The notes below the pieces were generated by a model. That model searched no databases, was not told the origin of the DNA, and saw only the letters and a list, made by a program, of their open reading frames with translations. From the NCBI GenBank assembly GCA_017626395.1, contig JAGAIU010000011.1, positions 20,917 through 84,916 of the forward strand: a stretch of 64,000 bases of DNA, given 5' to 3'. Numbering within the stretch: the first letter of the stretch is position 1; each line of letters begins with the position of its first letter. Below, in pieces: positions 32,282 through 58,612 of the stretch. Source of the stretch: Clostridia bacterium. Lineage in GTDB: Bacteria > Bacillota > Clostridia > TANB77 > CAG-465. The translations under genes and the position numbers were made by a program.

Positions 32282-33409
32282 ATGGTAGAATTAATAATTA
32301 ATGATGGTACTAATATATTAGATAATTTATGGCAAAATTTAATTAGCGTAGGTGCTAGAACTCGTCGACATGATAGTTCACATACAGGACTTTTATTTTC
32401 AGCAATTGCAACTGAAATAAATGTTGCAATTAGTTTATTACAGTCATACTCTAATCAATACTCATTAGATACTATGACAGATAAAGTATTGATTGAAAAT
32501 ATGTCCAGTCAATACGCTATTCGTAGATTAGCAAGTAAATCAAAAGCTATATTAACTTTTTATCGTATGGAAGGATATACAGAAGGGATTAGAATACCTG
32601 CTGGTTTTGCAGTAAAAGCTTCTGTTCCTGGTAATATTATATTTAAAACAGTATCAGATGTATATTTAAATAAAGGTACACAATCAGTCTCTGTTATGGC
32701 ATATTCATTAAATTCAGGTACACAAAATAATGTTGATGCATATACATTAACTATATGTGCTGACCCAAATTTTAATACAATGTTTGGTGTAACCAATAAA
32801 GAACCATCATTTGGTGCTTATAATGATGAATCCATATCCCATTTACAAGAAAGAGCTAAATCTTTTAGATGGGCTACAGAATACACTCAAAGAGATATAG
32901 AAAACCATATGTATCAAGTTGGTTTAACTGGTAGTGATTTCATGTTAGAAGAGTATATTGATGGTCCTGGTACTTATATGATTTGTGTAGATACAGATTC
33001 AGATTATGCTTTTGATGATGTTGTTAGCAGAATATCATATTATCATAATCGTGGAATACAACCTGTATATGTACGTGCTACAAGATTATATATTGATATG
33101 TACATTACAGTACAAACAGCACATGAAGTGGATTATACTCCAACAGAAAAAAATTCAATTTATAATAATATTAATAATGCGATACAAAGATTCTTTGCAG
33201 CATATTGTGCTATTGGAACTGATATTCGTATTAACGCATTAAAAGCAGCTATTAATAATGCATTAAGTGGTTATGATATTGCTGATGTTGAAGTAGACAT
33301 AGCAAATTCTGTTGTCGTAAATAAACGTAATGTTGTAGAAATTGGTAATACAACAAAAGCATATCCTAATAAAATTTTAACATCATTAGAATACGTAGGG
33401 GGAGAATAA
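32282..33409 (+). CDS. baseplate J-like protein
   Basis: KSKAILTFYRMEGYTEGIRIPAGFAVKASVPGNIIFKTVSDVYLNKGTQSVSVMAYSLNSGTQNNV resembles the gpJ/gp6 pattern (A-G-x-V-x-F...IPaGt-x-V...F-x-t...V-x-A-x-x-G-x-x-gNV). 375 aa. Confidence 0.5.
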   Translation: MVELIINDGTNILDNLWQNLISVGARTRRHDSSHTGLLFSAIATEINVAISLLQSYSNQYSLDTMTDKVLIENMSSQYAIRRLASKSKAILTFYRMEGYTEGIRIPAGFAVKASVPGNIIFKTVSDVYLNKGTQSVSVMAYSLNSGTQNNVDAYTLTICADPNFNTMFGVTNKEPSFGAYNDESISHLQERAKSFRWATEYTQRDIENHMYQVGLTGSDFMLEEYIDGPGTYMICVDTDSDYAFDDVVSRISYYHNRGIQPVYVRATRLYIDMYITVQTAHEVDYTPTEKNSIYNNINNAIQRFFAAYCAIGTDIRINALKAAINNALSGYDIADVEVDIANSVVVNKRNVVEIGNTTKAYPNKILTSLEYVGGE

Positions 33410-33957
33410 TGGTTAAATGTAATATAGAAAGATTAAAAACAGTTGAATCTGATTTTATTGCTATATCTGACATGAATACATCTACTCAATGTGAGCAAAA
33501 TCTTTCTAATGCAGATATGTTGGATTTTCGTTCTGATATGGATAATCGTTCTTTTTATGAAAAAACTGCTTGGAATGCATGTGAAGATTTAATATACACA
33601 AAAAACGAAGAAACACTTTGGCAATGTATTGTAGGTGAAATAAAAACACCTAAAGGAGCATTAAGTAATTCAATAGGTCAATCATCATATGGTTGCTTAA
33701 TCTGGGACTTCATTGGAGAAAATTTAGACTCATTAGATATAAAAGAAATAGAATACGAAATCATACAAGTATGCCTAAAATATCCAGAAGTTAATAATGT
33801 TATTGGAATAGAAACATATACAGCAGATAATACAATGCTATTGATGGAAATATCAATAGATTCAATATATGGTACCTTTGATGGAACATTAAGAATACCA
33901 ACAGCCCACATAAGTAAAAAAGACTGGAGAAAATACGATAACAGAATACTTAATTAA
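33409..33957 (+). CDS. small baseplate protein (gp25/GPW-like candidate)
   Basis: 182 aa. ATGG overlap with the J-like gene. LSNSIGQSSYGCLIWDF...IEYEIIQVCLKYPEVNNV is loosely gp25-like. Confidence 0.3.
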   Translation: MVKCNIERLKTVESDFIAISDMNTSTQCEQNLSNADMLDFRSDMDNRSFYEKTAWNACEDLIYTKNEETLWQCIVGEIKTPKGALSNSIGQSSYGCLIWDFIGENLDSLDIKEIEYEIIQVCLKYPEVNNVIGIETYTADNTMLLMEISIDSIYGTFDGTLRIPTAHISKKDWRKYDNRILN

Positions 33958-34008: not shown

Positions 34009-37000
34009 ATGGATTATCAAGAATTAGAGGACGTATACGAATTCCATAGAAATATGAGGAAAACTCCATGGTTGCAGTTGTTTCCACATTGGTGGGATGA
34101 AAATGACGCTTTATTAAACGCCATTGGTAATGAAGTAGAACGTGTCAAAGCACAAGCTGTTTTTGTTCTATTAAACGCAGGTATTAAACCACCAGTATTA
34201 TTATGGCAAGAATCAATTAATCATGAAACTTTTAATGCTCATTTCAACGCAAAACAATTACCAAAAACTGTAACAATTCAAGCACCACTTTATGAAACTT
34301 GGGGTAAGATTACGCTTACTAATAATACAGAGAAAGACATAGATGGTTTAATATTAAAACTTGATAATTCACATGGATATGCAATTAATCAATTAATTAC
34401 TCAAGAAGATATTTTAGTAATTAATTTAACAGAAAATAAAGTTCTTTTAAATAAAAAACAAATTGAGCCTCAAACCATAGGCGAAGGAATGCCATATTTC
34501 GTTACACAACAAAATAATGAAGTATACGATACAAACACACCATTACATAATGAAGTTATTAGATTAGAAATATCTACAAATGATACTGAAAATATTGAAT
34601 GTGATATTGACATTGACATTGAATTAGAAAATGCTGTCTTTACTAATGAACAAAATATCGAAATTACAGGTTTAGAAGCTGTACCAATTGATAGAGTAGA
34701 ATTATATGTTAAATATGATTTTTCATTTAACTCTAAATATAATGGATGGCAAAAAGCATGGGAAAAAGAATATGAGAAAAATACTAACGTAGTATACGAT
34801 AGAATTACTACACAGATATATACAAAAGAATTCTATGTCGATGTATACTTTAAAACACTTCAATACCCATATACTGTAGGATTCCCTTGTTACAAGGAAG
34901 CCACATCAAAGTCACCATATCATGTTAATAGCAGATTAGATAAATGGGGAGAGCAATTAGGTCTTCCAAGAAGATTATATAAAACTGAAATACCAACCAA
35001 TGAATATTATAGAACTTTTCCTATTTTTTATCCTTTCGACATTGAACAAGATTATTGGTATTATAAACGTTTAACTAGTGAATACTCTTGGGTAGAATCA
35101 CCTGTTAATGATGTAGACATTAAAGATACAGATGGTAATAATGTAATTAGATTGTATTCAATTAATCCATTTACAGAAGATTTCGCTGTCCATGCTAAAT
35201 CAAGATATCCAGTTGATAAAGAATTTATTAATTATAATGATTATCATCCAATTGCTATATCTCAACAAACAGCAAAAGATATAGGTGTGCAAACTCCTTA
35301 TAAAGATATAATTAATTTATTATCTGATAACAATAAAAAAGCATCAATTACATTAAACAACTATACAGACAACAACGATGTAGTCTATAAAAGAAATAAA
35401 TATTATCAAAAATACGATTACATTACAGAACTAGGTGAAGGAGTATATAGAGAGGGCTGGAAAGAGCCAGATAGTTATAAAAAAGATATATCATATATTA
35501 AAAGCAGTACACATCAATCTACAGAACTTATAACTTATTTTGATTTATCTAGTTTACCACAAGATGTTAATATTGAAAATATTGAATTTATTGTAGAAGC
35601 TGAATCTACTGATAATAAAAAAAATAAATATGCTACTGAAAATACTGGGGTATTAATTCCTAATTATAATGACTCTGAAAGATTTTTCATACCATTAACT
35701 GCCGATAAAAGTTATCAGTTAAAAAAGCAAGAAATTACTTATTCAAATGATGAAGTAATTGATTACTTAAATAACATTAAAATTGCAGATGAGAATATTA
35801 GGCAAAGTTTTACTATAGGTGAATTTCAAGGTAAGATTACTGATTTCGTAAAAATACCTTTTGAATTAGAAGAAAATAGTGAAAATGTTGATGATATTAC
35901 TGATGTATGGATATATTATAATGGAAACATTAGGCAAGCATCTTATAAGAATGATGAAAATGGTAAATATATTTATGCATACGTACCTAATTTACCAATA
36001 ATAAATACACTTACTATTATATGTAAATCACAAACACATAAGCCTTTTTCATACACTATTAATGTTAATAAGTATAATCAATACTCTGAAGATGGAACTA
36101 CAATAGAATATCAATACATACAAGGACCTATTGTTAATGATGAGCATAATGAAATATCTGACTACGTCGAATGGCACACAGATAACTTACGTAATTTAAT
36201 GCAAAAGCAAGGAATTTATTTCAGACATATATTAAAAAATACTGACGAACAAAGTTCAACAACAGTATTTTTATATAATATTCAAGCAAAAATTACATAT
36301 TCACCTAAAAAATCAAATTTTAAAATAACAACTAATATCACTAAAAAATCTGATTTCCCAAAAATAGGTACATTAAATATAAAAGTTGAAAATACTGGAG
36401 AAAAGAACTTTAGTAGTAATGTAGATATTATTACACCATCTAATATAGTATTATCACAAAATAATATACCAATAGATTTAAAAGTCGGTCAATCACTTGA
36501 AAAAGATATCGATATTACTGCTACATATCCAATTGATGATGGCTTTTATGATATTGTAACTATTTGTGAAGATTCTATAAAAAAAGATAGCATAGAAATT
36601 TTCTCTGATGGTTTAATAGCAACAGGTGTTAATCTTAAATCACATCATGGAAAATATAACGATACTATTAATTTAAAAGCTGAAGTATATGCTATTGATG
36701 GTGGTAAAATTAATGGGACAGATAGCCAAGTACAATTTTATATTAATGGATTTGCAGTTGGTAATAAAGTGCAAGTTGTAGATGGGTTAGTTGAAGCTTC
36801 AATTTCACCTAAAGATTACTATTTTACTGGTACTGGTAATTTAACATTAGAAGCAAAATTTTTAGGTACTACAAAATATGCTTCATCATCTAATAAATCA
36901 ACTATTTTTATTAGTAAAGATACAACACGTATAGAATTAATTTCTGATAATGTAGCACCATATAAGGGAGCTTTTGAATTAAAAGCTAAAGTAGAATATT

Positions 37001-40000
37001 ATAATGGTCAAGGATATGTTCCAGTAGATGCTGGAACTGTAGAATTTTATATAGATGATGAAATATTAAGTAGCAATACAACATTAGTAGATGGAGTATT
37101 TCTATCTTCTATTAATTCAATAGAAAACCCAGCAGGTAGTTATACATTATGGGCTAAATATTCAGGTACAGAATCTTATGTAGCTGTAGAAACATCACAA
37201 CCTTTTGAAATTATTGGTGGAAAAAGTAAAATATCTGTATTCGATATACAAGCAAAACCATATTCTATAATACAATTAAAAGCAAAAGTAACAGATGTAA
37301 ATAATAAAAATATAATTAGTGGATATGTAGATTTTAATATAAAAAATATACATGGCGAAGATGTAAATTTTAACACTAATATTACTAATATACCTGTTAA
37401 AAATGGTTTAGCAATATCTGATGATATATTATTAAGCGTTGAATTAGAATCAGATTTTAATACAGAAAGATACACTATTGAAGCAAAATACCATAATACT
37501 TTAGATTCAAATAACGATGAGTTATATGGGTCTAGTACAGCACAAGGTTATATTTTTGTAGCTAAAACAGATGTTATTTTAGATTATCAATCATTCTATG
37601 GTACACAATATGAACCTTTAGGTTTTTATGTTAGAGCAAGAGACGCAGAAACAGGTGCACCAGTATCTAATGGTAAAATAGCTATTACTTTAGAAACAGA
37701 AGGAGTAACTATTGAAGAAGAAGTAGATGATAAAGGAGTAGCTCGTTTAATTCATAATCCTTTAGATTTTAATGCAAAAGATTGGAGTGAATTAGAGAAA
37801 TTTTCTTTTGACGTTGTAGATGATGATTTACATAGATATTACAATGGAACAGAATTTATAGCTGATTTTGATTTCTTTTACAATGAACAAGATGGTACAT
37901 TACATTATATCAAAGGAAAACAAAATAATGAAAATAATGAAGTATCATTCATATATAATGCAGAAACTGGTAAATATGACATTATTGATACTGATACAAA
38001 TGATGTAATTGATGATTACGATAATGAACATTTATATATAACAAATGGTCATTTGTACGCAAGAACAACAAAAGATATATTGCGACAATATACAATTGGC
38101 ACACAAAATTTAAAAATCGAATACATTTCAAGTGGACAATATAGAAGTAAAACTGAATATTTTGATGATGGATTGCAAATTTCACAATCTAATATTGATT
38201 TAGATATACATTCATATGATTTAAAATATACAGATAACGATAGTATTATATGTTATGCAACAAAATACACTTTTACTGACGATATCAATACAGAAAATAT
38301 TAATAGTGGAAGTGTACAATTTATTGTAGACAATCAAGTATTAGATACAGTAAATATTGCTAATGGTAAAGCTATATTAAAAAATAGTCTTTTAACCAAT
38401 ATTAATGGTGGACAACATTTAATGTGCGTTAAATATGCTAATAATAATGATACTTCTTATTCTTATTCATTATTGAAGCTGACAAAAATGGAGCCATCAT
38501 TAAATATTTTAGTCGACCAAGAGATTAAAAATAAAAAATCTAATGTTATTGTTACTTTATCAGCTTCTGATAATTTAAATATACCTTTAAATGGATTGAT
38601 ATCATTATATTTAGATGATGAATTAATTGGCACACAATATCTTAATGGAAACGAGATGTTGCCTGGAATAATTGATGAATATAATATCGAAAGGTTAAAA
38701 GAAGAAATGCAATTATACTCTGAATCAGAACGTAACATATATATTCCTGGTGTTATTTTTAGTGTGTTAATGCCATATGATATAGATAATCATCAATTAG
38801 TAGCTAAATATGAGGGTAATGAGTTTTTGATGCCTAAAACTCAAACATATCAATTATCTCAAATACCTGCTGAAATACAAATTAATATAAAAAATAATAT
38901 TTATGTCGCTAGAAATGAGCCTTGTTTTATTGATGTTGATGTTACATATGAAGACGATATCATAAATGAAGGTAAAATAGTATTAACATATGGAGACGAA
39001 GAAATAGCATCATCAAATGTCCTTGACAATAAAGCTAGATTAACATGGACTCCATCATCAAATAATTTATTAAATACTTATGTAATTACTTACACAGGTT
39101 CAACAAATTACAAAGACAAACATATTACTGCAAATATAAATGTAATTGACCCACTTAAAACAATTACAATACCAAATGAACAACAACATACATTAGAAGA
39201 TGCATTAATGTGCTTACAATCAAATGGAACAATATACATTACAGACGATATTATATTAGAAAAAAGCATTGAAATCACAAAAGATTGTTCAATTATTGGT
39301 GAAAATGGTGTATCTATTATTAAGGATATTAAAGAGTTACCAATTGACTTTAATATTTTACAAAATATAAGCACAGAACAAATGCAACATATGTATAAGC
39401 TTGATTTATCTTTTGAAGATATTAATGCAACAGATTTTACTTTTATAGATAATCAGTTATATATAAAAGGTAAAACAGAAATGATACCTATATATTTAGC
39501 AGAGAATGGAGTATTTTATTCTGAAACACCATTATCAAAAATATTATCTGATTTAAATATTATTATAAAAGCAAATGTACATTTCGATAATTTAACCTTT
39601 AAATCTAATGACAGCAAAATATTAAATAATTTTGTAATTTATAACGAAAGCAATTGCTTAATTACTTATTCAATTATTGAAAAGACAGCTAAATTATATA
39701 ATAAAGGAAACATGACAGCCCATAGAAATCTAATCTATGGATTATGTCAAAATGTTACAGATTTAGATAATAATTGGTGGGGGTCAAATACACCACCATA
39801 CAACGTTAATAACCATATAATCATTGATGTTAAAGCAGTTAATACACCAGCAGTTATTAGCGAAGAAGTTGAAATAGAAGGAGAAATGATAGGTGCAAAT
39901 GGTCAATACTACACCATACCACAAACAGATTTTAGTTTTACTGCTGATAGTGGATATTTCTCTGTGGATACAGGTAAAGTAACAAATCAAAAAGCACATA

Positions 40001-43000
40001 CAACATATTTAGACGCTATTAAAGAAGGTAATGTTTACTTTACAGTTGATAATGAGACAGTAAAATGTCCAGTATATGATTATGAAAGAAAAACAGAAGT
40101 TATTATTGATGACATTGATGAAGTACTAATTAATTATCAAATGCCAATCACAGCAAAAGTACAAAGTTGTGCCGATGTATATTATGAATTTGACAATAAT
40201 AATAATATTACTGAAAGTACAAAAACAATCAATGAAGGATATATTGACTTCTATATCGATAACAAACAAGTAGGACATGAAGCTGTAAGAAAAGGTAAAG
40301 CTCAAGCAAAAATATTCTTTAAAGATGCAATTTATGAGGAAAACACAAAATACGAATTAAAAGCAATTTATCATTCATCTGATAATTATTTTGATTCTCA
40401 ATCATCAATTAATATAACAACTATTACAGATGAAGATGTTTGCTTTGTATCTACTTCAGGAAGTGATAATGGAAATGGTAATTATAGTAATCCTTTCTTA
40501 ACATTATCAAAAGCAATTGCATCTAATAATAAAAAAATATTTTTACTTGAAGGAGATTATTATGCTGAAAATATTATAGTCACACATAATGTATCTATTA
40601 AAAAATACAATGGAGAAGTGAATTTTTCAAATAATACAGGCAATATTTTATTTAATATACAACCTAATGTAAAATTAAATATTTCAAAAATTAATTTTAT
40701 AGAAAATCAAACAACAATATTATTTGACAATTCTGGTAGTTTAAATATAGAACAATGTATTTTTTATAAAAATAAAAGTACATTATTTAAAAATAACTTA
40801 ACATCAACTTTATTTTCAGTATCATTATGTGCTATAGTAGATAATTATTTAATATCTTCTAATATTAATCCTAATCATTATTCATATTGTTGGTTTGGAA
40901 CTAATTCCCCTTCAGATGATTTTAATGATTATATAGTAATGACTACTAAAGTATCAAAAGATAAAATATATATAGGTAGTTTAGCTCATATTACAGCAGA
41001 ATTGAAACATTATAGTCATAATGGAGTACAATATAATTTAGATAATCCATTACCATTAAGAATAGCTAAATTTGCCTCTGATATTGGTGAACTTAAACCT
41101 GTTAAAGATTACACTTATCATAATAGTAGTACAAGTTTAATTAATACATTAAAAGATAACAATACATCACAATATATTATTAAATTAAAAAATAGAGTAT
41201 ATTATGATTCAGAAAAAATTAATCTGTTATTTAATGTTACTAATGTATTTGACGAACCAGTAGAATCTGGAATTTTAAAAGTTGTGATTACAAGCGAGAA
41301 TAATAAATTAGAAAACACTATTGATATCATTAATGGTCAAGCTACTTATAATCTACCAACATTACCAATAGACGAATATAATGTTAGTTGCACATATATA
41401 AAAGAGCAAATATACAATTTAAATACAACTTTTGTTGTTAAACCATTAGATATTATATTGCAAAATATACAATTAGATGAGTTTTCACACTTATATTATA
41501 CTCATATTACTGGAACTGCTGTAGATAATTTAGGTCAAAATATTAACGATGAAATATTAGACATTAAAATTAATGATGACAATGTAGGGACATTAATAAT
41601 AAACGATGGCGTCATAAATCAACAAATATCCTATAATCTACTCAAACCAGGTCAATATGAAATTATTTTAACAAATGAAGATAGACGCACAAAATATGAT
41701 ACATTACACTATACAATACCTTTAATAGTTAAACCACAAAAAACATCCATTGCTTTTGATTATAATACTATTGAAAAAGATATTAGTAATAATCTTATTA
41801 TTGAAATATACGACAGCGAAGGTAGAGAAGTACAATCAGGAACAGTTAGAGTAGATTTTAATAACGTCATTTATGAAGAAAGTATATCAGTTAATAATGG
41901 TATCGCAATGTTAAATAACTTTAATATTGATAATAGTGGGCAATATCCAATTGCTATATATTATACCGATAATGATGGGTATTATAAAGACTCTGTTTAC
42001 ATCAATAATAACTTTGGTGTTGGCATATATGGCGTAACTTTTTCATTATCTGATACAGATATTATTACAGCAGATATAGGAAAACAATTTGCTTTAAATA
42101 CAACTATTAAAGATGTAGGTAATCAATTAGTGAATATAGGATATGTAAATGTTTACATTGATGACAGCTTGTACGTTCAAAACGTAGGAATCAATAATGG
42201 AAACGTAAGTATTATTTCAGAATTACCAGAAAATATATCTGCTGGACTACATAGACTTACTCTTGAATATATAGGCGATGATATATATTTAGATACTTAT
42301 TTAGATATTTATTTAAAAATAGGTCAAATTCAAACAGAAATAGGTATTATTAGTACTTCAGGTAAAAGTGGGCAAAAATCAACAATTAATTACACAATTA
42401 ATTCAATATATGGAAACGTTAATACTGGAACATTAACAGCTGTTTTCAACGAACAAATTATAGGTCAATCTATTGTTACTGATAATATTACTAATCAAAT
42501 AACATTTAATACACCATTTTTACCAGCAAATAATAACTATGAAATTACCTTTAAATATCACGACAGTAATAATAATTATGCAGATAGTAGTATTACAACA
42601 AAATTAATCATTGAAAGAAGTAATGTTATTATTACACCACAAAAAACATGGTATTATCCTCAAAAAGATTTTAATTTTATATTAGATGTAAGAGATGCCG
42701 AAGAAAAAATTATTGATAATGGTAAAATCGATTTATATGTTAATAATGTAAAAGAATATGAAGACATATCTATTGTTAATGGTCAAGCTGTTATTCCAAT
42801 GATTTTTAATAAGGCATCAACATATACTTTTGATATTGTATATCAAGAAGATGAATACTATTTACAAACTAAAAAAACAATTGACTTTAATGTTGATAGC
42901 GTTGTTATAGATGATATTAACTTTAAAGATGAATTGTCAAGCTTGCCAAATAGAATGTTTTCAACTGAATTAATCTTCACAACATTAGATGATTACATTG

Positions 43001-45456
43001 TAAAAGATGGTGTTGTCGATATTTTATTTGATAATAATGTCATAGCAAATTATTATATGGCTGAAAACAATAAATATGTTGATTTTAATATTGGAAATGA
43101 AACCAAAGGATTACATAAAATTACAATTAAATATTATAATTCATCATTATTTAAAGACTTTGAAAAAACATATGATTTCAATATAGAAGCTAAATCTATT
43201 GATTTACGTATTAACACAAATAGTGAATATCAAAGCCAAAACATTGAAGCTATTAGTAGCGATATTATCAGTATTCAAACTGATTTTATACTTGATAATA
43301 ATTATACTCCAATGTCTGGAATTGTTAATTATTACATAGGTATTCCACAATATAAGATTAACAGCAACAATGAAGAGTATATCGATAGTTACTACGATAG
43401 ACTTATTGGTCAAGAAGAGTTTATTAATGAGACATCTAAAACACATGAATATATTCTTACTAATGATTTATTAGCATATACTGCTGATAATTTAGAAACT
43501 CATTATAGAATTAAAGCACATTTCATAGGCAACGATGAATATGAAGAATCCATAGAAACAGTTGATTTAAATATATATAAGCAAAATACACATATTATTT
43601 TGCCTTCAGATATGCAATTTGAATATCAGAGCAAAATGAATGTTAATATAGATATTATTAATAATAATAATGAAAATATAATTGGCGTAGAAAATGTTGA
43701 TATATATTTAGACGATGTTTTAGTATCATCATGTAAAACTATAGATGGAAAAGGTACTTTTACTTATCAGTTAAAGAATAAACATGTTATAGGTACATAT
43801 GACTTACGTGCAGTATTTAATGGTTCAGCTGTTAATAATCCATCTGAAACTACTGTTAGTTTTACAGTAACACCATTTACACCAATACTTAAAACAAAAG
43901 ATATAGACATGTATATACATGGTCAAAATACTTTAGATAATATTATTTATGATAAAAATGGAGTTATTATAGAAAGTGGTACCCTTAAATATGATACTCA
44001 TAATGGCGTTTTAGAATCCAAACCTAATGTGCCAGATGTAGTATGGTTTGATTCTGCTTTCAGAGATGATTGGGAATTAGATGTAGAATATATTAGTGAT
44101 GATTTAACAAAATACAATAACTTTCATGATACAATTCATGTTCATATGCATAAAAACCCTATTGAATTATCAATATATGCACCAGAACAAATATATCGTG
44201 GCGTACCTTTTGATGTAACCTTAAAAGCAAAAGCCCCAACTACAGCATATGATGTGAATTTAGACTTTTATAAAGAAGATGATGAAAGATATGTCATGCT
44301 TAATGGCTCTACTACTATATCTTTAATTTACCCTACTACATTGGAAGATAATTCTATTATTGAGGATTATATTAAAACAGATGGTAATGATATTTTTGAA
44401 GCTAATGAAATTTTATTAAAATTAAAAGTTAAAAACCAAGATAATATTACTGTAAATACTTCAATACCAGAATCAGCAACTAACACACATTCAATTCAAA
44501 AAGCAATTGATTTAGTAAGTGATTATGGTAGTATAGAAATAAGTACGCCAATAAGTAATCAAACAATTAATTTAACTAAAAATCTTACAATCAAAGGCGA
44601 TGCTACACTAACAAATTGTGTAATTAATAACGAAAGCAATAAAATACGTATTGATGGACTTACCTTTGAAAATGGAGAAGACACATGTATCAATAACAAT
44701 GCAAACATGACCATAATGAATTGTACATTTAAAAACAATCAAAATTCAGCAATAAAAACAAATGGAGAATTAAACGTTACACAATGTACATTTATAGGCA
44801 ATAATGCAGAAAAAGGTGCATGTATAAAAATCGGCAATAAAAATTATAAAACTAGCATTACATACTGTACTTTTAATGGAAATAATGCATCATTATATGG
44901 TGGATGTATTTATTCTGATAAAGTAAATGACATGGAAATATATAATAATGAATTCTCAAATAATAACAATGCTGGTGTTGGTGGTTCATCTATATGTGCT
45001 TATGGAGATATAGCAATTTCATTTAATACATTTTTCAATAATGCAGGAACTAGCGATATTTACTTATTACGTGGAACAACAGTATTAGAAAATAATTTAT
45101 TTGATGGTGCTATTACATCATTAAAAACACTTGATGGTAATGATATAGATTGTGATTTAAATTACTGGGGTTATAATGATATTAATGATATTTATAGTAA
45201 TAACCCTAATATTGAAATAAATAACTTTTTAATATCTGATTGCGAAATCATAGAAAAAGAAACTGGAAATTATATTATAGGTAGGATTAATAAATATATA
45301 AATCGTTTAGAAAGTGAAATTACTACTATAAATATATTAGAAAAACATTTCCCAGTTAAATTAAATGAAGAGCAATTTTATTTAAATGATGAGATAGCTA
45401 TTGAAATGAATGATACCTTTATGATAGGTCAAGATATAATTCATATTGAACATTGA
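34009..45456 (+). CDS. giant adhesin-like tail fibre/receptor-binding protein (3815 aa): Ig-like repeat arrays plus three parallel beta-helix modules
   Basis: Many about 90-aa repeats with the G-x-V-x-F-x-I(N/D)...A-x-Y-x-G...Y signature. Three right-handed beta-helix (PbH1-like) blocks rich in N-x-(A/S/G) rungs, each ending in an N-x-W(W/F)G-x-N-(S/T)-P-like motif (39769..39795, 40884..40910, 45161..45181). Follows the baseplate genes. Confidence 0.7.
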   Translation: MDYQELEDVYEFHRNMRKTPWLQLFPHWWDENDALLNAIGNEVERVKAQAVFVLLNAGIKPPVLLWQESINHETFNAHFNAKQLPKTVTIQAPLYETWGKITLTNNTEKDIDGLILKLDNSHGYAINQLITQEDILVINLTENKVLLNKKQIEPQTIGEGMPYFVTQQNNEVYDTNTPLHNEVIRLEISTNDTENIECDIDIDIELENAVFTNEQNIEITGLEAVPIDRVELYVKYDFSFNSKYNGWQKAWEKEYEKNTNVVYDRITTQIYTKEFYVDVYFKTLQYPYTVGFPCYKEATSKSPYHVNSRLDKWGEQLGLPRRLYKTEIPTNEYYRTFPIFYPFDIEQDYWYYKRLTSEYSWVESPVNDVDIKDTDGNNVIRLYSINPFTEDFAVHAKSRYPVDKEFINYNDYHPIAISQQTAKDIGVQTPYKDIINLLSDNNKKASITLNNYTDNNDVVYKRNKYYQKYDYITELGEGVYREGWKEPDSYKKDISYIKSSTHQSTELITYFDLSSLPQDVNIENIEFIVEAESTDNKKNKYATENTGVLIPNYNDSERFFIPLTADKSYQLKKQEITYSNDEVIDYLNNIKIADENIRQSFTIGEFQGKITDFVKIPFELEENSENVDDITDVWIYYNGNIRQASYKNDENGKYIYAYVPNLPIINTLTIICKSQTHKPFSYTINVNKYNQYSEDGTTIEYQYIQGPIVNDEHNEISDYVEWHTDNLRNLMQKQGIYFRHILKNTDEQSSTTVFLYNIQAKITYSPKKSNFKITTNITKKSDFPKIGTLNIKVENTGEKNFSSNVDIITPSNIVLSQNNIPIDLKVGQSLEKDIDITATYPIDDGFYDIVTICEDSIKKDSIEIFSDGLIATGVNLKSHHGKYNDTINLKAEVYAIDGGKINGTDSQVQFYINGFAVGNKVQVVDGLVEASISPKDYYFTGTGNLTLEAKFLGTTKYASSSNKSTIFISKDTTRIELISDNVAPYKGAFELKAKVEYYNGQGYVPVDAGTVEFYIDDEILSSNTTLVDGVFLSSINSIENPAGSYTLWAKYSGTESYVAVETSQPFEIIGGKSKISVFDIQAKPYSIIQLKAKVTDVNNKNIISGYVDFNIKNIHGEDVNFNTNITNIPVKNGLAISDDILLSVELESDFNTERYTIEAKYHNTLDSNNDELYGSSTAQGYIFVAKTDVILDYQSFYGTQYEPLGFYVRARDAETGAPVSNGKIAITLETEGVTIEEEVDDKGVARLIHNPLDFNAKDWSELEKFSFDVVDDDLHRYYNGTEFIADFDFFYNEQDGTLHYIKGKQNNENNEVSFIYNAETGKYDIIDTDTNDVIDDYDNEHLYITNGHLYARTTKDILRQYTIGTQNLKIEYISSGQYRSKTEYFDDGLQISQSNIDLDIHSYDLKYTDNDSIICYATKYTFTDDINTENINSGSVQFIVDNQVLDTVNIANGKAILKNSLLTNINGGQHLMCVKYANNNDTSYSYSLLKLTKMEPSLNILVDQEIKNKKSNVIVTLSASDNLNIPLNGLISLYLDDELIGTQYLNGNEMLPGIIDEYNIERLKEEMQLYSESERNIYIPGVIFSVLMPYDIDNHQLVAKYEGNEFLMPKTQTYQLSQIPAEIQINIKNNIYVARNEPCFIDVDVTYEDDIINEGKIVLTYGDEEIASSNVLDNKARLTWTPSSNNLLNTYVITYTGSTNYKDKHITANINVIDPLKTITIPNEQQHTLEDALMCLQSNGTIYITDDIILEKSIEITKDCSIIGENGVSIIKDIKELPIDFNILQNISTEQMQHMYKLDLSFEDINATDFTFIDNQLYIKGKTEMIPIYLAENGVFYSETPLSKILSDLNIIIKANVHFDNLTFKSNDSKILNNFVIYNESNCLITYSIIEKTAKLYNKGNMTAHRNLIYGLCQNVTDLDNNWWGSNTPPYNVNNHIIIDVKAVNTPAVISEEVEIEGEMIGANGQYYTIPQTDFSFTADSGYFSVDTGKVTNQKAHTTYLDAIKEGNVYFTVDNETVKCPVYDYERKTEVIIDDIDEVLINYQMPITAKVQSCADVYYEFDNNNNITESTKTINEGYIDFYIDNKQVGHEAVRKGKAQAKIFFKDAIYEENTKYELKAIYHSSDNYFDSQSSINITTITDEDVCFVSTSGSDNGNGNYSNPFLTLSKAIASNNKKIFLLEGDYYAENIIVTHNVSIKKYNGEVNFSNNTGNILFNIQPNVKLNISKINFIENQTTILFDNSGSLNIEQCIFYKNKSTLFKNNLTSTLFSVSLCAIVDNYLISSNINPNHYSYCWFGTNSPSDDFNDYIVMTTKVSKDKIYIGSLAHITAELKHYSHNGVQYNLDNPLPLRIAKFASDIGELKPVKDYTYHNSSTSLINTLKDNNTSQYIIKLKNRVYYDSEKINLLFNVTNVFDEPVESGILKVVITSENNKLENTIDIINGQATYNLPTLPIDEYNVSCTYIKEQIYNLNTTFVVKPLDIILQNIQLDEFSHLYYTHITGTAVDNLGQNINDEILDIKINDDNVGTLIINDGVINQQISYNLLKPGQYEIILTNEDRRTKYDTLHYTIPLIVKPQKTSIAFDYNTIEKDISNNLIIEIYDSEGREVQSGTVRVDFNNVIYEESISVNNGIAMLNNFNIDNSGQYPIAIYYTDNDGYYKDSVYINNNFGVGIYGVTFSLSDTDIITADIGKQFALNTTIKDVGNQLVNIGYVNVYIDDSLYVQNVGINNGNVSIISELPENISAGLHRLTLEYIGDDIYLDTYLDIYLKIGQIQTEIGIISTSGKSGQKSTINYTINSIYGNVNTGTLTAVFNEQIIGQSIVTDNITNQITFNTPFLPANNNYEITFKYHDSNNNYADSSITTKLIIERSNVIITPQKTWYYPQKDFNFILDVRDAEEKIIDNGKIDLYVNNVKEYEDISIVNGQAVIPMIFNKASTYTFDIVYQEDEYYLQTKKTIDFNVDSVVIDDINFKDELSSLPNRMFSTELIFTTLDDYIVKDGVVDILFDNNVIANYYMAENNKYVDFNIGNETKGLHKITIKYYNSSLFKDFEKTYDFNIEAKSIDLRINTNSEYQSQNIEAISSDIISIQTDFILDNNYTPMSGIVNYYIGIPQYKINSNNEEYIDSYYDRLIGQEEFINETSKTHEYILTNDLLAYTADNLETHYRIKAHFIGNDEYEESIETVDLNIYKQNTHIILPSDMQFEYQSKMNVNIDIINNNNENIIGVENVDIYLDDVLVSSCKTIDGKGTFTYQLKNKHVIGTYDLRAVFNGSAVNNPSETTVSFTVTPFTPILKTKDIDMYIHGQNTLDNIIYDKNGVIIESGTLKYDTHNGVLESKPNVPDVVWFDSAFRDDWELDVEYISDDLTKYNNFHDTIHVHMHKNPIELSIYAPEQIYRGVPFDVTLKAKAPTTAYDVNLDFYKEDDERYVMLNGSTTISLIYPTTLEDNSIIEDYIKTDGNDIFEANEILLKLKVKNQDNITVNTSIPESATNTHSIQKAIDLVSDYGSIEISTPISNQTINLTKNLTIKGDATLTNCVINNESNKIRIDGLTFENGEDTCINNNANMTIMNCTFKNNQNSAIKTNGELNVTQCTFIGNNAEKGACIKIGNKNYKTSITYCTFNGNNASLYGGCIYSDKVNDMEIYNNEFSNNNNAGVGGSSICAYGDIAISFNTFFNNAGTSDIYLLRGTTVLENNLFDGAITSLKTLDGNDIDCDLNYWGYNDINDIYSNNPNIEINNFLISDCEIIEKETGNYIIGRINKYINRLESEITTINILEKHFPVKLNEEQFYLNDEIAIEMNDTFMIGQDIIHIEH

Positions 45457-45572: not shown

Positions 45573-46916
45573 ATGATAGATAATATTAGATTTTATGATT
45601 CTGAACATACAGTAAAAATTTCTATTGATAATGAGACTCAAGAAGAGCCTATTTACGAAATAGAAAAAATGGCATCTTATATAATATCAAATAATGCTAT
45701 TGATGTATCATTAAATGAAGATATCCATATTGATGCATCATTATGTTATGTTCCATATGATAAAACAATAGAAAAGGAAATAGACTCACCTAAAATAATA
45801 GATTTAGATGGAACAGTTACTATAACAATATCTGATGATAATAAAATTTTTTATCAAAATAATGTTCTCTTTAAAAGAGGTAATATAAAAGATGTTATAC
45901 CTAATAAGTTACCTTTAGGCGAATATAATGCTATTATTGAATTTGATGGCAATAAATATTTATCTTATACAAGATTAAATATTAATTTCAATGTTACTAA
46001 ACGAAAAACAAATTTTATATTTGATGAAAATAATTATTATGGATATCCAGACACATCTATTCAAATATCAGGTAAATTAAAAGATACATTAACAAATAAG
46101 CCAGTAAAAAATTGTATTATTAATTTTGACTATAATGGAGACACATATTCTACTACCACTAATAATATGGGAGAGGCTTTTATAAAGCTAAATATACCAG
46201 ATGTAGATATATCACATTGTTTTAATGATGAAAACGTTCCAAATATGTCTTATCCAATAACTTTATCTTTAGATAGTGAATCATATGAAATCTATAATAG
46301 TATGACAAATATCATCACTATGAAATTACCTACAGATGTAACAATTAATCAACAAACAGATATAATAAATAATAACGTTACTATTGGTGGATATGTAACA
46401 GCTCAATATCCTACTGAATCTAAAAATGCTCAATATGGAAAAGTAGTGGTATCTTTTCAAGATACAGATTATGTGAGTTCGCCAGTTAATATCGGTTCAG
46501 ATGGTAATTTTTCATTAAGTATAAATTTTGCTGATGTAAATGAATTTAACAATAAATCTAATATTACAGAATTAGTAATGTATCAAAAAGCTACAGAACA
46601 AATTACATCTATTAATTTAGAAGTTGAAGATACAACTATTCAAAAAGGGGAGCTAATAACTGCCATTGCAAATGTATTTTCACAAGAATCATCTGATTAT
46701 GTAAAAGATGGTATGGTAGTATTTATTTTAGAAAATAACAATCATAAAGAAATCTATAGATATGCTACACAAATAGATAGTATTGGACAATCAGTTTTTT
46801 TATTTAATACGTCTATGTCAGGTAAATATTATGTTAAAGCATATTATTATGGTATTTTTGGTTTTTTAAATTCAGAAAGTAAAACAATAGAAGTAGAGGT
46901 AGAAAATGTCATATAA
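45573..46916 (+). CDS. Ig-like repeat fibre-associated protein (447 aa)
   Basis: Big-like repeats (ITISDDNKIFYQNNVLF..., VKNCIINFDYNGDTYSTTTNNMGEAFIKLNIP). RBS and start at 45573. Confidence 0.5.
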   Translation: MIDNIRFYDSEHTVKISIDNETQEEPIYEIEKMASYIISNNAIDVSLNEDIHIDASLCYVPYDKTIEKEIDSPKIIDLDGTVTITISDDNKIFYQNNVLFKRGNIKDVIPNKLPLGEYNAIIEFDGNKYLSYTRLNINFNVTKRKTNFIFDENNYYGYPDTSIQISGKLKDTLTNKPVKNCIINFDYNGDTYSTTTNNMGEAFIKLNIPDVDISHCFNDENVPNMSYPITLSLDSESYEIYNSMTNIITMKLPTDVTINQQTDIINNNVTIGGYVTAQYPTESKNAQYGKVVVSFQDTDYVSSPVNIGSDGNFSLSINFADVNEFNNKSNITELVMYQKATEQITSINLEVEDTTIQKGELITAIANVFSQESSDYVKDGMVVFILENNNHKEIYRYATQIDSIGQSVFLFNTSMSGKYYVKAYYYGIFGFLNSESKTIEVEVENVI

Positions 46917-50455: not shown

Positions 50456-52306
50456 ATGAGTTTTAGGGAATCTTTTTATCAAACAAAACAATTATTAGTA
50501 AACAGACTTAATGATTTTGGTATTTTAAGTGCTAATATGAATATGGGGTGGACAACATTATTAACAATCAAACAGAATACTAGAATAACAATTGATGTTC
50601 CATTAAATTTAATATATAGTGATGAATTTTTAATTACAGGAACATTAGAGACATCAACATATTCAAGATTAAATGGTAAAACAGTTAAATTAAAAGTGGG
50701 AGATACAGTTGTTGATACTACAACAACAAATGTTAATGGTGAATATTCATTTACACACACTCCTGTTTCAACAGGTACTCATTCATTTCAGGTTATTTTT
50801 GAAGAAACAAATGTTCATGCAGCTTCAGAAAGTTCAATTGTTACTCGTGAAGTTGGAAAAGAAACAAGTGTTATGAATTTAGATGCTGTATCAACACAAC
50901 ATTATGGTGATACTTTAATAACTGGTGGACAATTGCTAGATAATGATGGACAATATATAGCAGATGCTTCAGTAGTATATAAATTAAATGGAACAACAGT
51001 AAGCACTTTAACAACAGATTCGTATGGTACTTTTTCTGTAACAAGAACAATTAATAGTTTTGCAACCACAAAAATGACATTTGAATATGCTGGTGATTCT
51101 AATTACACAAACACTAGTGCAAACGTAGATGTTAATGTATATCAACCACAATTAAGCTTAACAAGTAATAAAAATATTTTATCACATGCCGATAATGATA
51201 ATGCCACATTGACTGTACAAGTACAAGATAATGCACCTGTTCCACAAAATTTAGCTATTTCAAATCATTTAGTTACATTATTAGGTTATGATGATTATTC
51301 AGGTGAAACAGCATCAGATTTTACTGATACAAATAATATAGCATCCATTTCTGATGATAATCAAACTATTGTAATGTACAGTAATAGTTCTACTAGTGAC
51401 TCTAATATTGTACATAATACTACATTTGGGTCAAAACCTATGCTAATGAGTTTTAATGTTGACTCTGCAACAATTTCAGATGCAGGATATATTGCTGTAT
51501 TTAATGATGCTGGAACTTCAATGATTAGTTATTTAGAGTTAAGTACAGGGCAATATAACATATATAGTTATAATGATACTGATGCTGTTGTTGTGACAAA
51601 AAATGGGTCAACATTAGGTACTATAAAATTAAATGGACCTTTATCATATAAAATAGGTTTCTATCTGTCAGAAACAAGGATTGTTTTAAGCGATGTACAA
51701 GTTCATGAAATTATAGGTTCAGGATACACAAACTCTTCTGGTGCATGTACATTAACTTATGATTCTCAAGGTATTGGTGATATTGTTTTAACTGCTCAAG
51801 CGAATATTAACAGTAGTTTATCATCAGAAATATGCATTATAGAAGATTGTTTCAATGCACTTCTTACTGAACAATCCATATCAAATAGTAGTGGTACTAA
51901 AATCTCATCTGTTGGATTGGATACCATCTATAATATTCGTAATGAGAGTTTTAGTCTTGAATTCACTCATACTGGGAATGGTGTACTGAACATTGGTAGA
52001 AAATCAAGTTGGAGCAGTAGTACTGCAAACTATCGTGCCACAATCGGTTATGCCGATGGCAAACATTACTATGCGACAAGGACAACCAGTTCCGATGAAT
52101 CTTATGGAGATACTGCCTCCACCAGTACCGAATACCAGTATAAACTAACAAGAAACGGTTCAACACTCAATTTCTATGTTGATGATGCCCTAATCGGTAC
52201 TAAATCGTTCAGTACATTTGCCAGTTATGATGATTGGAGTATCTACTCAATTATATGGGGAAGTGGAACATCAACCATTAGCAATATTAAATTAAAACCA
52301 TTATAA
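50456..52306 (+). CDS. Ig-like repeat fibre protein with GC-elevated C-terminal ConA/LamG-like lectin domain
   Basis: RBS gaggagga. Big-like repeats (GKTVKLKVGDTVVDTTTTNVNGEYSFTHTPVSTGTHSFQV...). C-terminal SFSLEFTHTGNGVLNIG...YQYKLTRNGSTLNFYVDDALIGTKSFS is jelly-roll lectin-like. Codon usage shifts to GCC/ACC/CCG from about 51950. Confidence 0.5.
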   Translation: MSFRESFYQTKQLLVNRLNDFGILSANMNMGWTTLLTIKQNTRITIDVPLNLIYSDEFLITGTLETSTYSRLNGKTVKLKVGDTVVDTTTTNVNGEYSFTHTPVSTGTHSFQVIFEETNVHAASESSIVTREVGKETSVMNLDAVSTQHYGDTLITGGQLLDNDGQYIADASVVYKLNGTTVSTLTTDSYGTFSVTRTINSFATTKMTFEYAGDSNYTNTSANVDVNVYQPQLSLTSNKNILSHADNDNATLTVQVQDNAPVPQNLAISNHLVTLLGYDDYSGETASDFTDTNNIASISDDNQTIVMYSNSSTSDSNIVHNTTFGSKPMLMSFNVDSATISDAGYIAVFNDAGTSMISYLELSTGQYNIYSYNDTDAVVVTKNGSTLGTIKLNGPLSYKIGFYLSETRIVLSDVQVHEIIGSGYTNSSGACTLTYDSQGIGDIVLTAQANINSSLSSEICIIEDCFNALLTEQSISNSSGTKISSVGLDTIYNIRNESFSLEFTHTGNGVLNIGRKSSWSSSTANYRATIGYADGKHYYATRTTSSDESYGDTASTSTEYQYKLTRNGSTLNFYVDDALIGTKSFSTFASYDDWSIYSIIWGSGTSTISNIKLKPL

Positions 52307-52467: not shown

Positions 52468-53547
52468 ATGCTTACAATATATGAATTAAGAGATTATTTA
52501 GAAGAATTTATTGAAGAAAAAAAAGAAGTAAAAAATATCACAAATGCTACGATGAAAAAGCAAACCATTAATATAAAAAATTTTATAAAATGGCTAGAAA
52601 AAGAAAACATACAACAAATAGACAACAGAAATATAAAGAGATGCTTAAGAAAATATCGTAGCTACTGCTTAAATGAAAGGAATAATAAAAGAACCACAGT
52701 CAAGACATACCTGCTAAATGTGATAGATTTTTTAAATTACGAAGAAATCAGAATAATAACAGGACATGAAAAAATACACATCAAAGAAATAATAGAAGTC
52801 AAAAGCGAAAATCCTGATACAGCAAGAAAACGTATTGAAAAAATATCACTAACAAGAAAACAAACTGATTTCTTTTTAGACACAGTAAAAAGAACTGGCA
52901 ACATTAAAAACTATGCAATATGCAGAACTTTTATTGAAACTGGCATGAGATTAAAAGAACTTGTACTATTAGATAAAACAGATATAAAAGTACCATTAAA
53001 TAAACAAGGACTTTATATACTACCAAACGATAAATATGAAATAATTGAAGTACATTTAAGAGCAGAAAACACAAAAGGACAATACAAAAGCAGAACCACA
53101 TTTATAACATATGACACACTTGTTGCTATCAATCAAATGATAATGTCACGCATAATCGACTACCAAAAAAAGAAATATCAACGTGATATAATTAAAGTCA
53201 GAAAAAAAAGAGTAGAAAACGAAATAAATCGTCAAGAACTATTTACAGCAGAAGGAGATAGAAGATTCACCAGACGTGGAGTACAAAGTTTAATTAAGCA
53301 ACAAACAAAAAACTGCGATACAAGAATAGAAGAAGAAAATATAAAATGCCCAATCAATTACTTTAAAAATGTTAGCACACATATATTAAGACACACAGCA
53401 TTATCTCGTTACGCTGAAATATTAACAGTAGCAGAAGTGCAAACAATAGCTGGACATGCTAGTAGTTCTACAACAGATAGATACATACATATTGACCATA
53501 GTAAAATAAAAGAAAAAATTAGAATGAGTATGGAGGAAGATAAATGA
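52468..53547 (+). CDS. int: tyrosine recombinase / phage integrase
   Basis: Arg I in ETGMRLKEL. H-x-x-R in HILRHTALSRYAE. Catalytic Tyr context GHASSSTTDRYIHI. N-terminal SAM-like domain. 359 aa. Confidence 0.85.
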   Translation: MLTIYELRDYLEEFIEEKKEVKNITNATMKKQTINIKNFIKWLEKENIQQIDNRNIKRCLRKYRSYCLNERNNKRTTVKTYLLNVIDFLNYEEIRIITGHEKIHIKEIIEVKSENPDTARKRIEKISLTRKQTDFFLDTVKRTGNIKNYAICRTFIETGMRLKELVLLDKTDIKVPLNKQGLYILPNDKYEIIEVHLRAENTKGQYKSRTTFITYDTLVAINQMIMSRIIDYQKKKYQRDIIKVRKKRVENEINRQELFTAEGDRRFTRRGVQSLIKQQTKNCDTRIEEENIKCPINYFKNVSTHILRHTALSRYAEILTVAEVQTIAGHASSSTTDRYIHIDHSKIKEKIRMSMEEDK

Positions 53548-53904: not shown

Positions 53905-54681
53905 ATGAATAAAAAATTAATTATTTTATTAATTATTTTCGCAATTGCTTCATTAAATACTGTAAGTGCTGGAAACAATACAACAGTAGTTGATAATCCT
54001 ATAGTGGTTGTAGAAGATGGTCCTACAGTAGAAGCATTAGAAAGTGGTGATTCTAACATATCCTTTAGTAATGGATACAAAGGATACTGTATTGAATGGG
54101 GAGAACATTCAGCAGAAGCTGGAGATAAATTTTACATTCATGAAGACGTAGATAACAATATAAAAGTATTCTTTACATACTTCTACAAAGAATCACAAAA
54201 AGACACCATAGCAACACAACATATGATTTGGAAATTTACAGATAACAAAGAGTTCAGCAGATTTAATCAAACATTATATAATCAAATTATAAATGTATCA
54301 AAAAATATAAAAGTACCTAATGAAGGTACATTAAAAATAGACAATACAACAGAAATGGTATTCAGTTTCAAAAATTTTGTCTCACCAATATCACAACATC
54401 AAAATTATTTCGGCTATAAGATTTTTTTCAGAAATATTACCCATCAAATAAATGAATCTTCGACCAATAATATTACACTTATATTACCACAACTATATAA
54501 TTATGAAAGCAACTTTACATTTAATGAAGTGATTATTAATAAAAGTAATAATTCAACTCATACATCTACATCAAGTAGTGAAAAAATATTATTCTCTAAA
54601 CATGTTACTGGAGTCAACCTCCCATGGTATTTCATTTGCGTCATATTCATGATATTCGGGATTATAATAATAAGAACGTAA
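53905..54681 (+). CDS. secreted, C-terminally membrane-anchored protein (possible lysogenic-conversion/exclusion protein)
   Basis: Signal-peptide-like MNKKLIILLIIFAIASLNTVSAGNNTT. N-glycosylation sequons (NxS/T) are frequent. C-terminal LPWYFICVIFMIFGIIIIRT anchor. Confidence 0.45.
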   Translation: MNKKLIILLIIFAIASLNTVSAGNNTTVVDNPIVVVEDGPTVEALESGDSNISFSNGYKGYCIEWGEHSAEAGDKFYIHEDVDNNIKVFFTYFYKESQKDTIATQHMIWKFTDNKEFSRFNQTLYNQIINVSKNIKVPNEGTLKIDNTTEMVFSFKNFVSPISQHQNYFGYKIFFRNITHQINESSTNNITLILPQLYNYESNFTFNEVIINKSNNSTHTSTSSSEKILFSKHVTGVNLPWYFICVIFMIFGIIIIRT

Positions 54682-55540: not shown

Positions 55541-55713
55541 GCCTCCTGTAATAATGTTATAGTTTGTATAGTAAAACTAAAAAATATCATTCCAAATAAA
55601 AAAGAAGGTAAATTTAAAGGATATTGTGTATTAATAACACCTGCAAATATTAATATAATTGGTGCTATAACAGCACAATATATTATTAAAATAAATATAG
55701 GTTTCCATTTCAT
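55531..55713 (-). CDS. small membrane protein (60 aa)
   Basis: Two hydrophobic helices (IFILIIYCAVIAPIILIFAGV; FLFGMIFFSFTIQTITLL). Overlapping start/stop with its neighbours. Confidence 0.35.
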   Translation of the reverse strand: MKWKPIFILIIYCAVIAPIILIFAGVINTQYPLNLPSFLFGMIFFSFTIQTITLLQEAWK

Positions 55714-56141
55714 AATAATCTTAAATCTCCAGTAATATTATCTATATCTTCCCTAGTAAAAGGACCAATACCTAAACAAGTAATTGAGCCATTAGTTACT
55801 TCAGTACGTCCTTCATCAATTACTAAAGCATTAGGAATCTTTTGTTCATCAGCTGCTCTTTTTAACTCTAATAAATCTGAAGTTGTCTCAACTTGTAAAA
55901 CAATTTTAGGATAAGAATTATCCAACCAACCAGCAGCTACAGACTCATTAGCTTCTAATAAAGATAATACTGATGCATGAGCTACTTGTGCAGCAATCTT
56001 ACCAACTGACATTCCTAAACTTTTATTAACCACTATAACTTGTTTGAAGTCTCCATCTTTGAAATTTTTATTAAATTTAATTGCTCTTAAAAAACCATTT
56101 GCTTTTAAAACATCTATTTTAACATTGTTTGTATCTTTCAT
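55710..56141 (-). CDS. pth2: peptidyl-tRNA hydrolase, archaeal/eukaryotic type (Pth2)
   Basis: GMSVGKIAAQVAHASV and DEGRTEVTNGSITCLGIGPFTREDIDNITGDLRLL align closely with the PTRH2/Pth2 family (KMGKGKVAAQCSHAAV ... [35 protein letters not shown]). 143 aa. Confidence 0.85.
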   Translation of the reverse strand: MKDTNNVKIDVLKANGFLRAIKFNKNFKDGDFKQVIVVNKSLGMSVGKIAAQVAHASVLSLLEANESVAAGWLDNSYPKIVLQVETTSDLLELKRAADEQKIPNALVIDEGRTEVTNGSITCLGIGPFTREDIDNITGDLRLL

Positions 56142-58500: not shown

Positions 58501-58612
58501 TTAAAATCACCATATAGTATTCGATATAATTAATCATATAATTAATTATGCAATTAATCATTTAAATACTTAACTACTTTAGAAATTACAGTATTAATTT
58601 AAGGTGATAGTC
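58501..58612. promoter_or_regulatory. divergent promoter/operator region with three contiguous 12-bp direct repeats (ATAATTAATCAT / ATAATTAATTAT / GCAATTAATCAT at 58526..58561)
   Basis: Read directly. Lies between the leftward accessory operon and the rightward endolysin gene. RBS aaggtga at 58601..58607. Confidence 0.4.

Follow-up and report, generated by a model that had tools for sequence, protein, structure and literature searches.

Adhesin-like proteins (ALPs) of the methanogen genera Methanobrevibacter and Methanosphaera carry several beta-helix modules interspersed with arrays of immunoglobulin-like (Ig-like) domains (PMC11532034; PMC2812497). A single host protein may combine as many as seven right-handed beta-helix domains with archaeal Ig-like domains, the latter poorly annotated by Pfam, and the beta-helix modules are regarded as the ligand-binding part of the molecule (PMC11532034). 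Beta-helices of the pectin-lyase fold also occur in phage tailspikes and tail-fibre depolymerases such as CBA120 TSP2/3, Kp32gp38, phi29 gp12 and Geobacillus virus E2 ORF18, each chain of which forms a single long helix whose catalytic groove is documented, and beta-helices recur in non-enzymatic adhesins such as S. pneumoniae PfbA, L. reuteri SRRP and proteins with Chlamydia Pmp-type repeats. Here we describe a 3,815-amino acid (aa) protein encoded in a 64,000-nucleotide (nt) stretch of contig JAGAIU010000011.1 (assembly GCA_017626395.1), which we refer to as the window. We consider it, with a probability of about 0.6, to be a giant tail fibre from a myovirus-like, temperate virus or provirus whose host is a pseudomurein-walled methanogen of the Methanobrevibacter type, with three beta-helix modules that would be non-catalytic binding modules of the adhesin type, each closed by a motif serving as its cap.

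The map of the fibre, in window coordinates, is as follows.

34009..45456, + strand: giant tail-fibre open reading frame (ORF), 3,815 codons open, 3,815 aa
34009..36618, + strand: N-terminal region, aa 1-870, adjoining the baseplate wedge genes
36652..37521, + strand: array of three Ig-like (Big_3_5-type) domains, aa 882-1171, from an iterated domain hidden Markov model (HMM)
38224..39132, + strand: array of three Ig-like domains, aa 1406-1708 (iterated domain HMM)
39178..39816, + strand: beta-helix module M1, aa 1724-1936, with an N-cap helix and short rungs
39769..39795, + strand: M1 closing motif NNWWGSNTP, aa 1921-1929
39817..40410, + strand: two beta-sandwich domains between M1 and M2, aa 1937-2134 (DSSP, Foldseek)
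40438..40938, + strand: beta-helix module M2, aa 2144-2310, about 7 regular rungs
40885..40911, + strand: M2 closing motif YCWFGTNSP, aa 2293-2301
41200..43173, + strand: array of seven Ig-like domains, aa 2398-3055 (iterated domain HMM)
43621..43857, + strand: Ig-like domain, aa 3205-3283 (iterated domain HMM)
44470..45228, + strand: beta-helix module M3, aa 3488-3740, about 10 rungs, with PMP-like GG(x)I and FxxN repeats
45160..45180, + strand: M3 closing motif NYWGYND, aa 3718-3724
45229..45453, + strand: C-terminal beta-sandwich tip domain, aa 3741-3815 (DSSP strands, model residues 300-373, predicted local distance difference test (pLDDT) about 90)

The existence of three separate parallel beta-helix modules, each closed by an aromatic motif, had been proposed in an earlier, sequence-only reading of this DNA, and is borne out by fold models, by the positions of the motifs and by their conservation in orthologues; the module limits given there (39180-39830, 40440-40930 and 44470-45240) lie within about 10 nt of the boundaries from models and profiles. 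AlphaFold2, fed with orthologue alignments, was used to obtain monomer predictions of two stretches, aa 1690-2330 covering M1 and M2 (pLDDT 84.4) and aa 3440-3815 covering M3 and the tip (pLDDT 91.6, predicted template modelling score 0.88). In these models, and by structural comparison, M1, M2 and M3 are confirmed as three separate right-handed parallel beta-helix modules of the pectin-lyase-like fold, three-stranded coils of stacked rungs. The order assigned by DSSP is the same in every module, with a short N-terminal helix followed by strands of 3-5 residues with beta-helix periodicity, then the motif and a beta-sandwich strand. The N-cap helices (aa 1729-1735, 2166-2171 and 3496-3502) stand directly ahead of the first rung, follow the pattern x-L-x-x-A-[IL]-x6-G-x-I and form the segment that aligns best among the three modules. 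M1 carries an insertion (aa 1773-1848; nt 39325-39552), a small beta-rich subdomain that is absent from some orthologues (P0007 and P0008) and is a candidate specificity element.

Sequence databases recognise these modules poorly. A Pfam scan of the whole protein returned Big_3_5 alone (E 4.9e-39); isolated M1 and M2 had no match to Pfam Beta_helix (PF13229), M3 scored 17.9-19.7 bits against it, below the cut-off of 25.9, and an NCBIfam scan of the isolated modules returned nothing. Among the 18 aligned M3 members, seven matched Beta_helix at E<=0.01 (best 3.3e-10), and three, the fibre itself not being one of them, matched the Chlamydia Pmp-type repeat PF02415 at the same threshold; PF02415 is also carried by distant relatives, and DUF1565 was matched by one orthologue. 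M3 itself contains the segments LYGGCIYS, GVGGSSICAY, FSNN and FFNN. Searches of the PDB with single sequences and with the M3 profile gave nothing significant, the weak match to 9mm2 (E=2) being without the motif, and Foldseek with the multi-domain model matched only two central Ig-like domains, to intimin, invasin and Fn3 tandems. PHROGs contained no family matching the fibre, any of its modules or the ORFs downstream. No fourth module was found by the M1, M2 and M3 profiles in the fibre or in other ORFs of the window.

The three modules lie at about 45-50%, 56-60% and 91-98% of the fibre length, among a total of 15 Ig-like domains placed by the iterated Ig-domain profile; the gaps in this map are probably more divergent beta-sandwiches. 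The N-terminus is charged (MDYQELEDVYEFHRNMRK...), and neither a signal peptide nor a transmembrane segment was detected by a crude hydropathy test, in which the top 19-residue Kyte-Doolittle window scored 1.45 and lay inside M2. The fibre likewise gave no Pfam match to a pseudomurein-binding repeat (PMBR), Big_1 or M1-C-like anchor, and its N-terminal region (aa 1-870) had no match in Pfam, PHROGs or the PDB. An identical protein is encoded on 14 metagenome contigs of 50-200 kb. A 95%-identical metagenomic fragment (P0001) extends 41 residues beyond the end of the fibre (...IHIEH; nt 45439-45456), and the C-terminal end therefore differs between close strains.

The closing motifs contain five of the 23 Trp residues of the fibre. 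When orthologues of 30-57% identity are aligned, M1 shows N-W-W-G-x-N and M2 shows W-x-G-x-N without exception (14/14 each), and in Y-W-G-x-N of M3 the Tyr and Asn are conserved in 18/18 members and the Trp and Gly in 16/18; conservation at such a distance means that the motif is not a matter of chance. Its common core is [N/C]-aromatic-aromatic-G-x-N. The wider pattern N-x-W(W/F)-G-x-N-(S/T)-P of the sequence-only reading describes M1 fully; in M2 the N-x is replaced by Y-C, and M3 lacks the (S/T)-P and has just one Trp. In both models the motif sits, by DSSP, after the last strand of the helix and before the first strand of the following domain, with a local pLDDT of about 94 at the M1 motif. 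From this position and conservation we infer that it is a structural C-terminal cap or domain junction, not a catalytic or ligand-binding signature.

Relatives of the fibre were obtained through an exhaustive HMMER search with aa 1690-2330, which recovered 21 proteins at E<1e-30, mostly of 3,600-4,000 aa. With 30-60% identity, these orthologues run collinearly with the fibre through its N-terminus, the M1-M2 region and M3, and the three modules with their motifs are kept at equivalent positions in about 21 giant collinear proteins. A word-indexed protein search with M1-M2 gave no scoring match among 8,000 candidates, and with M3 only three fragments and one distant match; a phage nucleotide and protein database contained no relative of the fibre, and fibres of this kind are not discussed in the MSTV1 paper.

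Conservation along the chain, expressed as mean identity to 15 full-length orthologues, is uneven around an average of about 34% for the whole fibre. The best-conserved part is the N-terminal 330 aa (52%), second only to which comes the Ig pair between M1 and M2 (aa 1937-2134, 45%), a degree of conservation that is unexpected for mere spacers. The beta-helix modules reach 34-36%, the C-terminal tip 29% and aa 3056-3487 25%, and the M1 insertion is the most variable segment, with 23% identity, 21% gaps and frequent deletion. This gradient agrees with a chain that is attached by its N-terminus and varies at its distal end, and it points to the M1 insertion as a specificity element. The residues conserved within the modules are Ile, Phe, Leu, Tyr, Asn and Gly, together with the motif.

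The modules are also related to one another. Comparison of their profiles with hhalign gave probabilities of 97-98% (E 1e-11 to 1e-13), against 0.2-0.3% for an Ig-region control, and blastp between modules aligned scarcely anything beyond the motif. No meaningful tandem, direct or inverted repeats were found in the gene or downstream of it that would point to recent duplication or invertible cassettes. The idea that the modules are simple duplications, named in the sequence-only reading as a finding that would speak against it, was thus rejected, as they show no DNA-level repeats, align little with blastp and are related through profiles only. On these sequence comparisons M1, M2 and M3 are old paralogues, not recent duplications.

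The same cassette is found in the adhesin-like proteins of the hosts. One genome per prokaryotic species was scanned with the patterns [DN]NNWWGxN and a second peptide, both taken from the alignment, and 33 loci were confirmed, of which 30 belong to Methanobrevibacter, Methanosphaera or other Methanobacteriaceae. The 44 long ORFs in the scanned loci contain 58 motifs (consensus A-(N/D)-N-N-W-W-G-(S/T)-N-x-x-P), where about 0.004 would be expected from composition; 13 ORFs hold two to five copies, and 44 of the 58 motifs sit at the end of a beta-helix profile match. The HMMs of M1, M2 and M3 have 25, 90 and 111 domain matches, respectively, in large ORFs of Methanobrevibacter and Methanosphaera, some of them full-length through the motif at 75-81 bits (E 1.2e-23 in locus L025 and 1.7e-25 in L010). 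All four host ORFs scanned with Pfam matched Beta_helix, and two or three of them also Chlam_PMP, Big_3_5 or DUF1565; a search with the M3 profile returned further proteins with Beta_helix, Chlam_PMP, DUF11 or Big_1 domains, one of which carries Methanobrevibacter in its name. Mimicry of host adhesin-like proteins, one of the options raised from the sequence, is therefore favoured at the level of homology. Identity between fibre and host modules is only 23-38%, so the fibre modules are not a recent capture. Proteins with the NNWWG motif also occur in non-archaeal bins, L017 (Bacteroidaceae) and L032 (Mollicutes). L032 shares its motif context (LNLDNNWWGSNNATYYN) with L024 of Methanobrevibacter intestini, a sign that it may be mis-binned. 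With four motifs in L017 and one in P0036, which comes from a Clostridium isolate, the motif is probably not confined to archaea.

The fibre shares with ALPs the set and order of modules, the NNWWG-type motif at the end of the helix and the Pfam signature Big_3_5; the further ALP signatures Beta_helix, Chlam_PMP and DUF1565 are matched on the viral side by some members of the fibre family, with M3 of the fibre itself below the Beta_helix cut-off. It differs from them in lacking a signal peptide or cell-anchoring domain, in having its own family-specific N-terminal region of about 870 aa, and in a gene context that is viral and not cellular, between baseplate wedge genes and further tail genes. 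The relevant features of this AT-rich window (G+C about 25-33%) are the following.

4100-5695, + strand: large terminase
5695-7053, + strand: portal
9214-10404, + strand: major capsid protein
13555-15744, + strand: sheath
17239-25737, + strand: 2,832-aa ORF between the sheath/tube region and the baseplate genes
32282-33409, + strand: Baseplate_J-like wedge gene (Pfam Baseplate_J, E 3.2e-9; phrog_6, E 1.2e-26)
33409-33957, + strand: 182-aa wedge subunit (phrog_261, E 7.1e-8), directly upstream of the fibre
45573-46916, 50456-52306 and 59660-60871: three Ig-bearing ORFs of the Big_3_5 type, without beta-helix module or WWG motif
52468-53547: tyrosine integrase
55710-56141, - strand: PTH2
56146-56988, - strand: RlaP
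58604-59491, + strand: pseudomurein endoisopeptidase Pei with two pseudomurein-binding repeats (Peptidase_C71, E 9.4e-15; PMBR, E 2.9e-12)

The position of the fibre matches that of a long tail fibre of myoviruses (P2 gpH-like), directly downstream of wedge genes of the gpJ/gpI type. The order of wedge genes and fibre is also found in the relatives L035 and L036 (about 40% identity in a relative), in both of which the Ig-bearing ORF 45573-46916 is kept directly after the giant fibre; a second such ORF lies between fibre and integrase, and the third (59660-60871) beyond the integrase. The L035 orthologue of the 2,832-aa ORF, of 3,585 aa, carries the tape-measure domain PF10145, and a tape measure of such length implies an exceptionally long contractile tail. 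Within the N-terminal region of the fibre, the motifs Y-K-T-W-G (aa 98; nt 34300-34310) and L-D-x-W-G-x-x-L-G-L (aa ~313; nt 34945-34975) are conserved in most orthologues, and the latter we take to resemble a wedge signature of the Mu gp48/XkdT type, no profile match supporting this.

The terminase is closest to that of Methanobacterium virus PhiF1 (33% identity), and this, together with Pei and its PMBR domains, makes the host a pseudomurein-walled methanogen (Methanobacteriales). Pei is the dedicated wall-degrading enzyme of the element and marks the host type. Its location downstream of the integrase, with the minus-strand genes between them, places the integrase inside the element and not at its edge. 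The position of a tail fibre in a methanogen virus, proposed from the sequence, is accordingly upheld by the preceding Baseplate_J and wedge genes and by Pei within the element. Just after the integrase, a 258-aa ORF (53905-54681) matches the thioester domain TED weakly and below the threshold (E 7e-4); TED domains serve Gram-positive adhesins in covalent attachment.

We propose that the N-terminal region, over some 330 to 870 aa, would anchor the fibre to the baseplate wedge; the remainder is a string of Ig-like beta-sandwich spacers bearing the three beta-helix modules. Each module is one copy of a cassette consisting of an N-terminal cap helix, Asn-ladder rungs and the [N/C]-Ar-Ar-G-x-N motif (Ar, aromatic) directly before the first strand of the following beta-sandwich, the aromatic side chains of the motif presumably sealing the end of the hydrophobic core. 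The modules would then be non-catalytic binding surfaces, through which the virion attaches to glycans or glycoproteins on the envelope of the methanogen. As their building blocks are the same as those of host adhesin-like proteins, they are more likely to be sticky binding modules than sugar-cutting ones.

A competing reading is that, in the manner of phage tailspikes, at least one beta-helix module works as a polysaccharide lyase or hydrolase and cuts the layer of heteropolysaccharide or glycoprotein that lies outside the pseudomurein. The sequence-only reading had gone further in this direction, passing from the fold to glycan depolymerases with multiple enzymatic specificities, and this step is not sustained. 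No glycosidase, lyase or esterase family of Pfam or NCBIfam matched the fibre, its isolated modules or its orthologues taken one by one, and no conserved acid/base cluster was found in the rungs. No Asp, Glu, Lys, Arg or His there is invariant across the orthologues; D1868, K2198, K3524, E3694 and D3699 are isolated charged positions of moderate conservation. Residues of a catalytic cleft, whose lack that reading had named as telling against it, are thus missing as far as sequence conservation shows. M1 and M2 are moreover short, at about 5-7 rungs, the nearest relatives in sequence are adhesin-like and PMP-repeat proteins and not enzymes, and Pei already provides the element with a dedicated wall hydrolase. 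In place of the single long helix of the tailspikes, the fibre has three short-to-medium helices in series in a 3,815-aa chain with Ig-like arrays between them, and shows no catalytic residues conserved in sequence and no enzyme family match. We consider a depolymerase doubtful on these grounds. The non-enzymatic beta-helix adhesins cited above differ from the fibre in another respect, being bacterial cell-surface proteins.

It is decidedly unlikely, in our estimate, that the beta-helices are architectural rods, rigid spacers or oligomerisation segments, with receptor binding left to the tip or to the downstream Big_3_5 proteins. Such a role would agree with the average conservation of the modules, neither hypervariable nor hyperconserved, with conserved residues that are solely structural, and with the presence of a separate C-terminal beta-sandwich tip and of three further Ig-bearing ORFs nearby, two before the integrase and one beyond it; it sits poorly with the ligand-binding role ascribed to the homologous modules of host ALPs (PMC11532034) and with the variable surface insertion of M1, which is typical of a specificity element. 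A protein that never enters the virion, a prophage-borne adhesin-like protein displayed on the surface of the lysogen (lysogenic conversion), would account for a domain composition that is the same as in host adhesin-like proteins. We regard it as highly improbable, because no signal peptide, transmembrane or PMBR anchor, or M1-C-like anchor was matched, because the gene lies within the tail module between wedge and further tail genes in an order kept in relatives, and because the first 330 aa are a conserved segment peculiar to the fibre family.

Several points weigh against our preferred reading of an adhesin-type, non-catalytic tail fibre. Single acidic positions are fairly well conserved (D1868 in 13/14, D3699 and E3694 each in 15/18 orthologues), and a scarcity of conserved charged residues is compatible with catalysis. 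That the Trp residues pack as a cap is deduced from the position and conservation of the motif only, and both the incorporation of the fibre into virions and its oligomeric state are predictions. Selection of the host loci relied in part on the NNWWG pattern, which guarantees one motif in each locus.

A more speculative and unlikely extension of the tail-fibre reading is that the virus wears the adhesion cassettes of its host, so that the virion binds the same ligands as methanogen ALPs and is concentrated where hosts attach. Syntrophic bacteria, protists or gut surfaces might provide these ligands, as might, in a like-to-like manner, the ALP or glycan coat of neighbouring methanogens. If true, the virus would follow an archaeal version of the 'adherence to mucus' strategy that relies on adhesins, and cassettes would continue to pass between the adhesins of the host and the fibres of the virus.

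How viruses of gut and rumen methanogens recognise their receptors is almost entirely uncharacterised, and such viruses are of interest for methane mitigation and for the ecology of the gut archaeome. The fibre family described here, with about 20 divergent giant orthologues, indicates that a lineage of Methanobacteriales viruses builds its fibre from beta-helix-plus-Ig cassettes of host type, and the three small modules offer a concrete set for ligand tests. N-N-W-W-G-x-N provides a simple signature that delimits beta-helix cassettes, largely missed by Pfam, in both viral and host proteins. The family further cautions that not every viral beta-helix should be annotated as a depolymerase, and makes a case for the sharing of modules between host adhesins and the receptor-binding proteins of their viruses.

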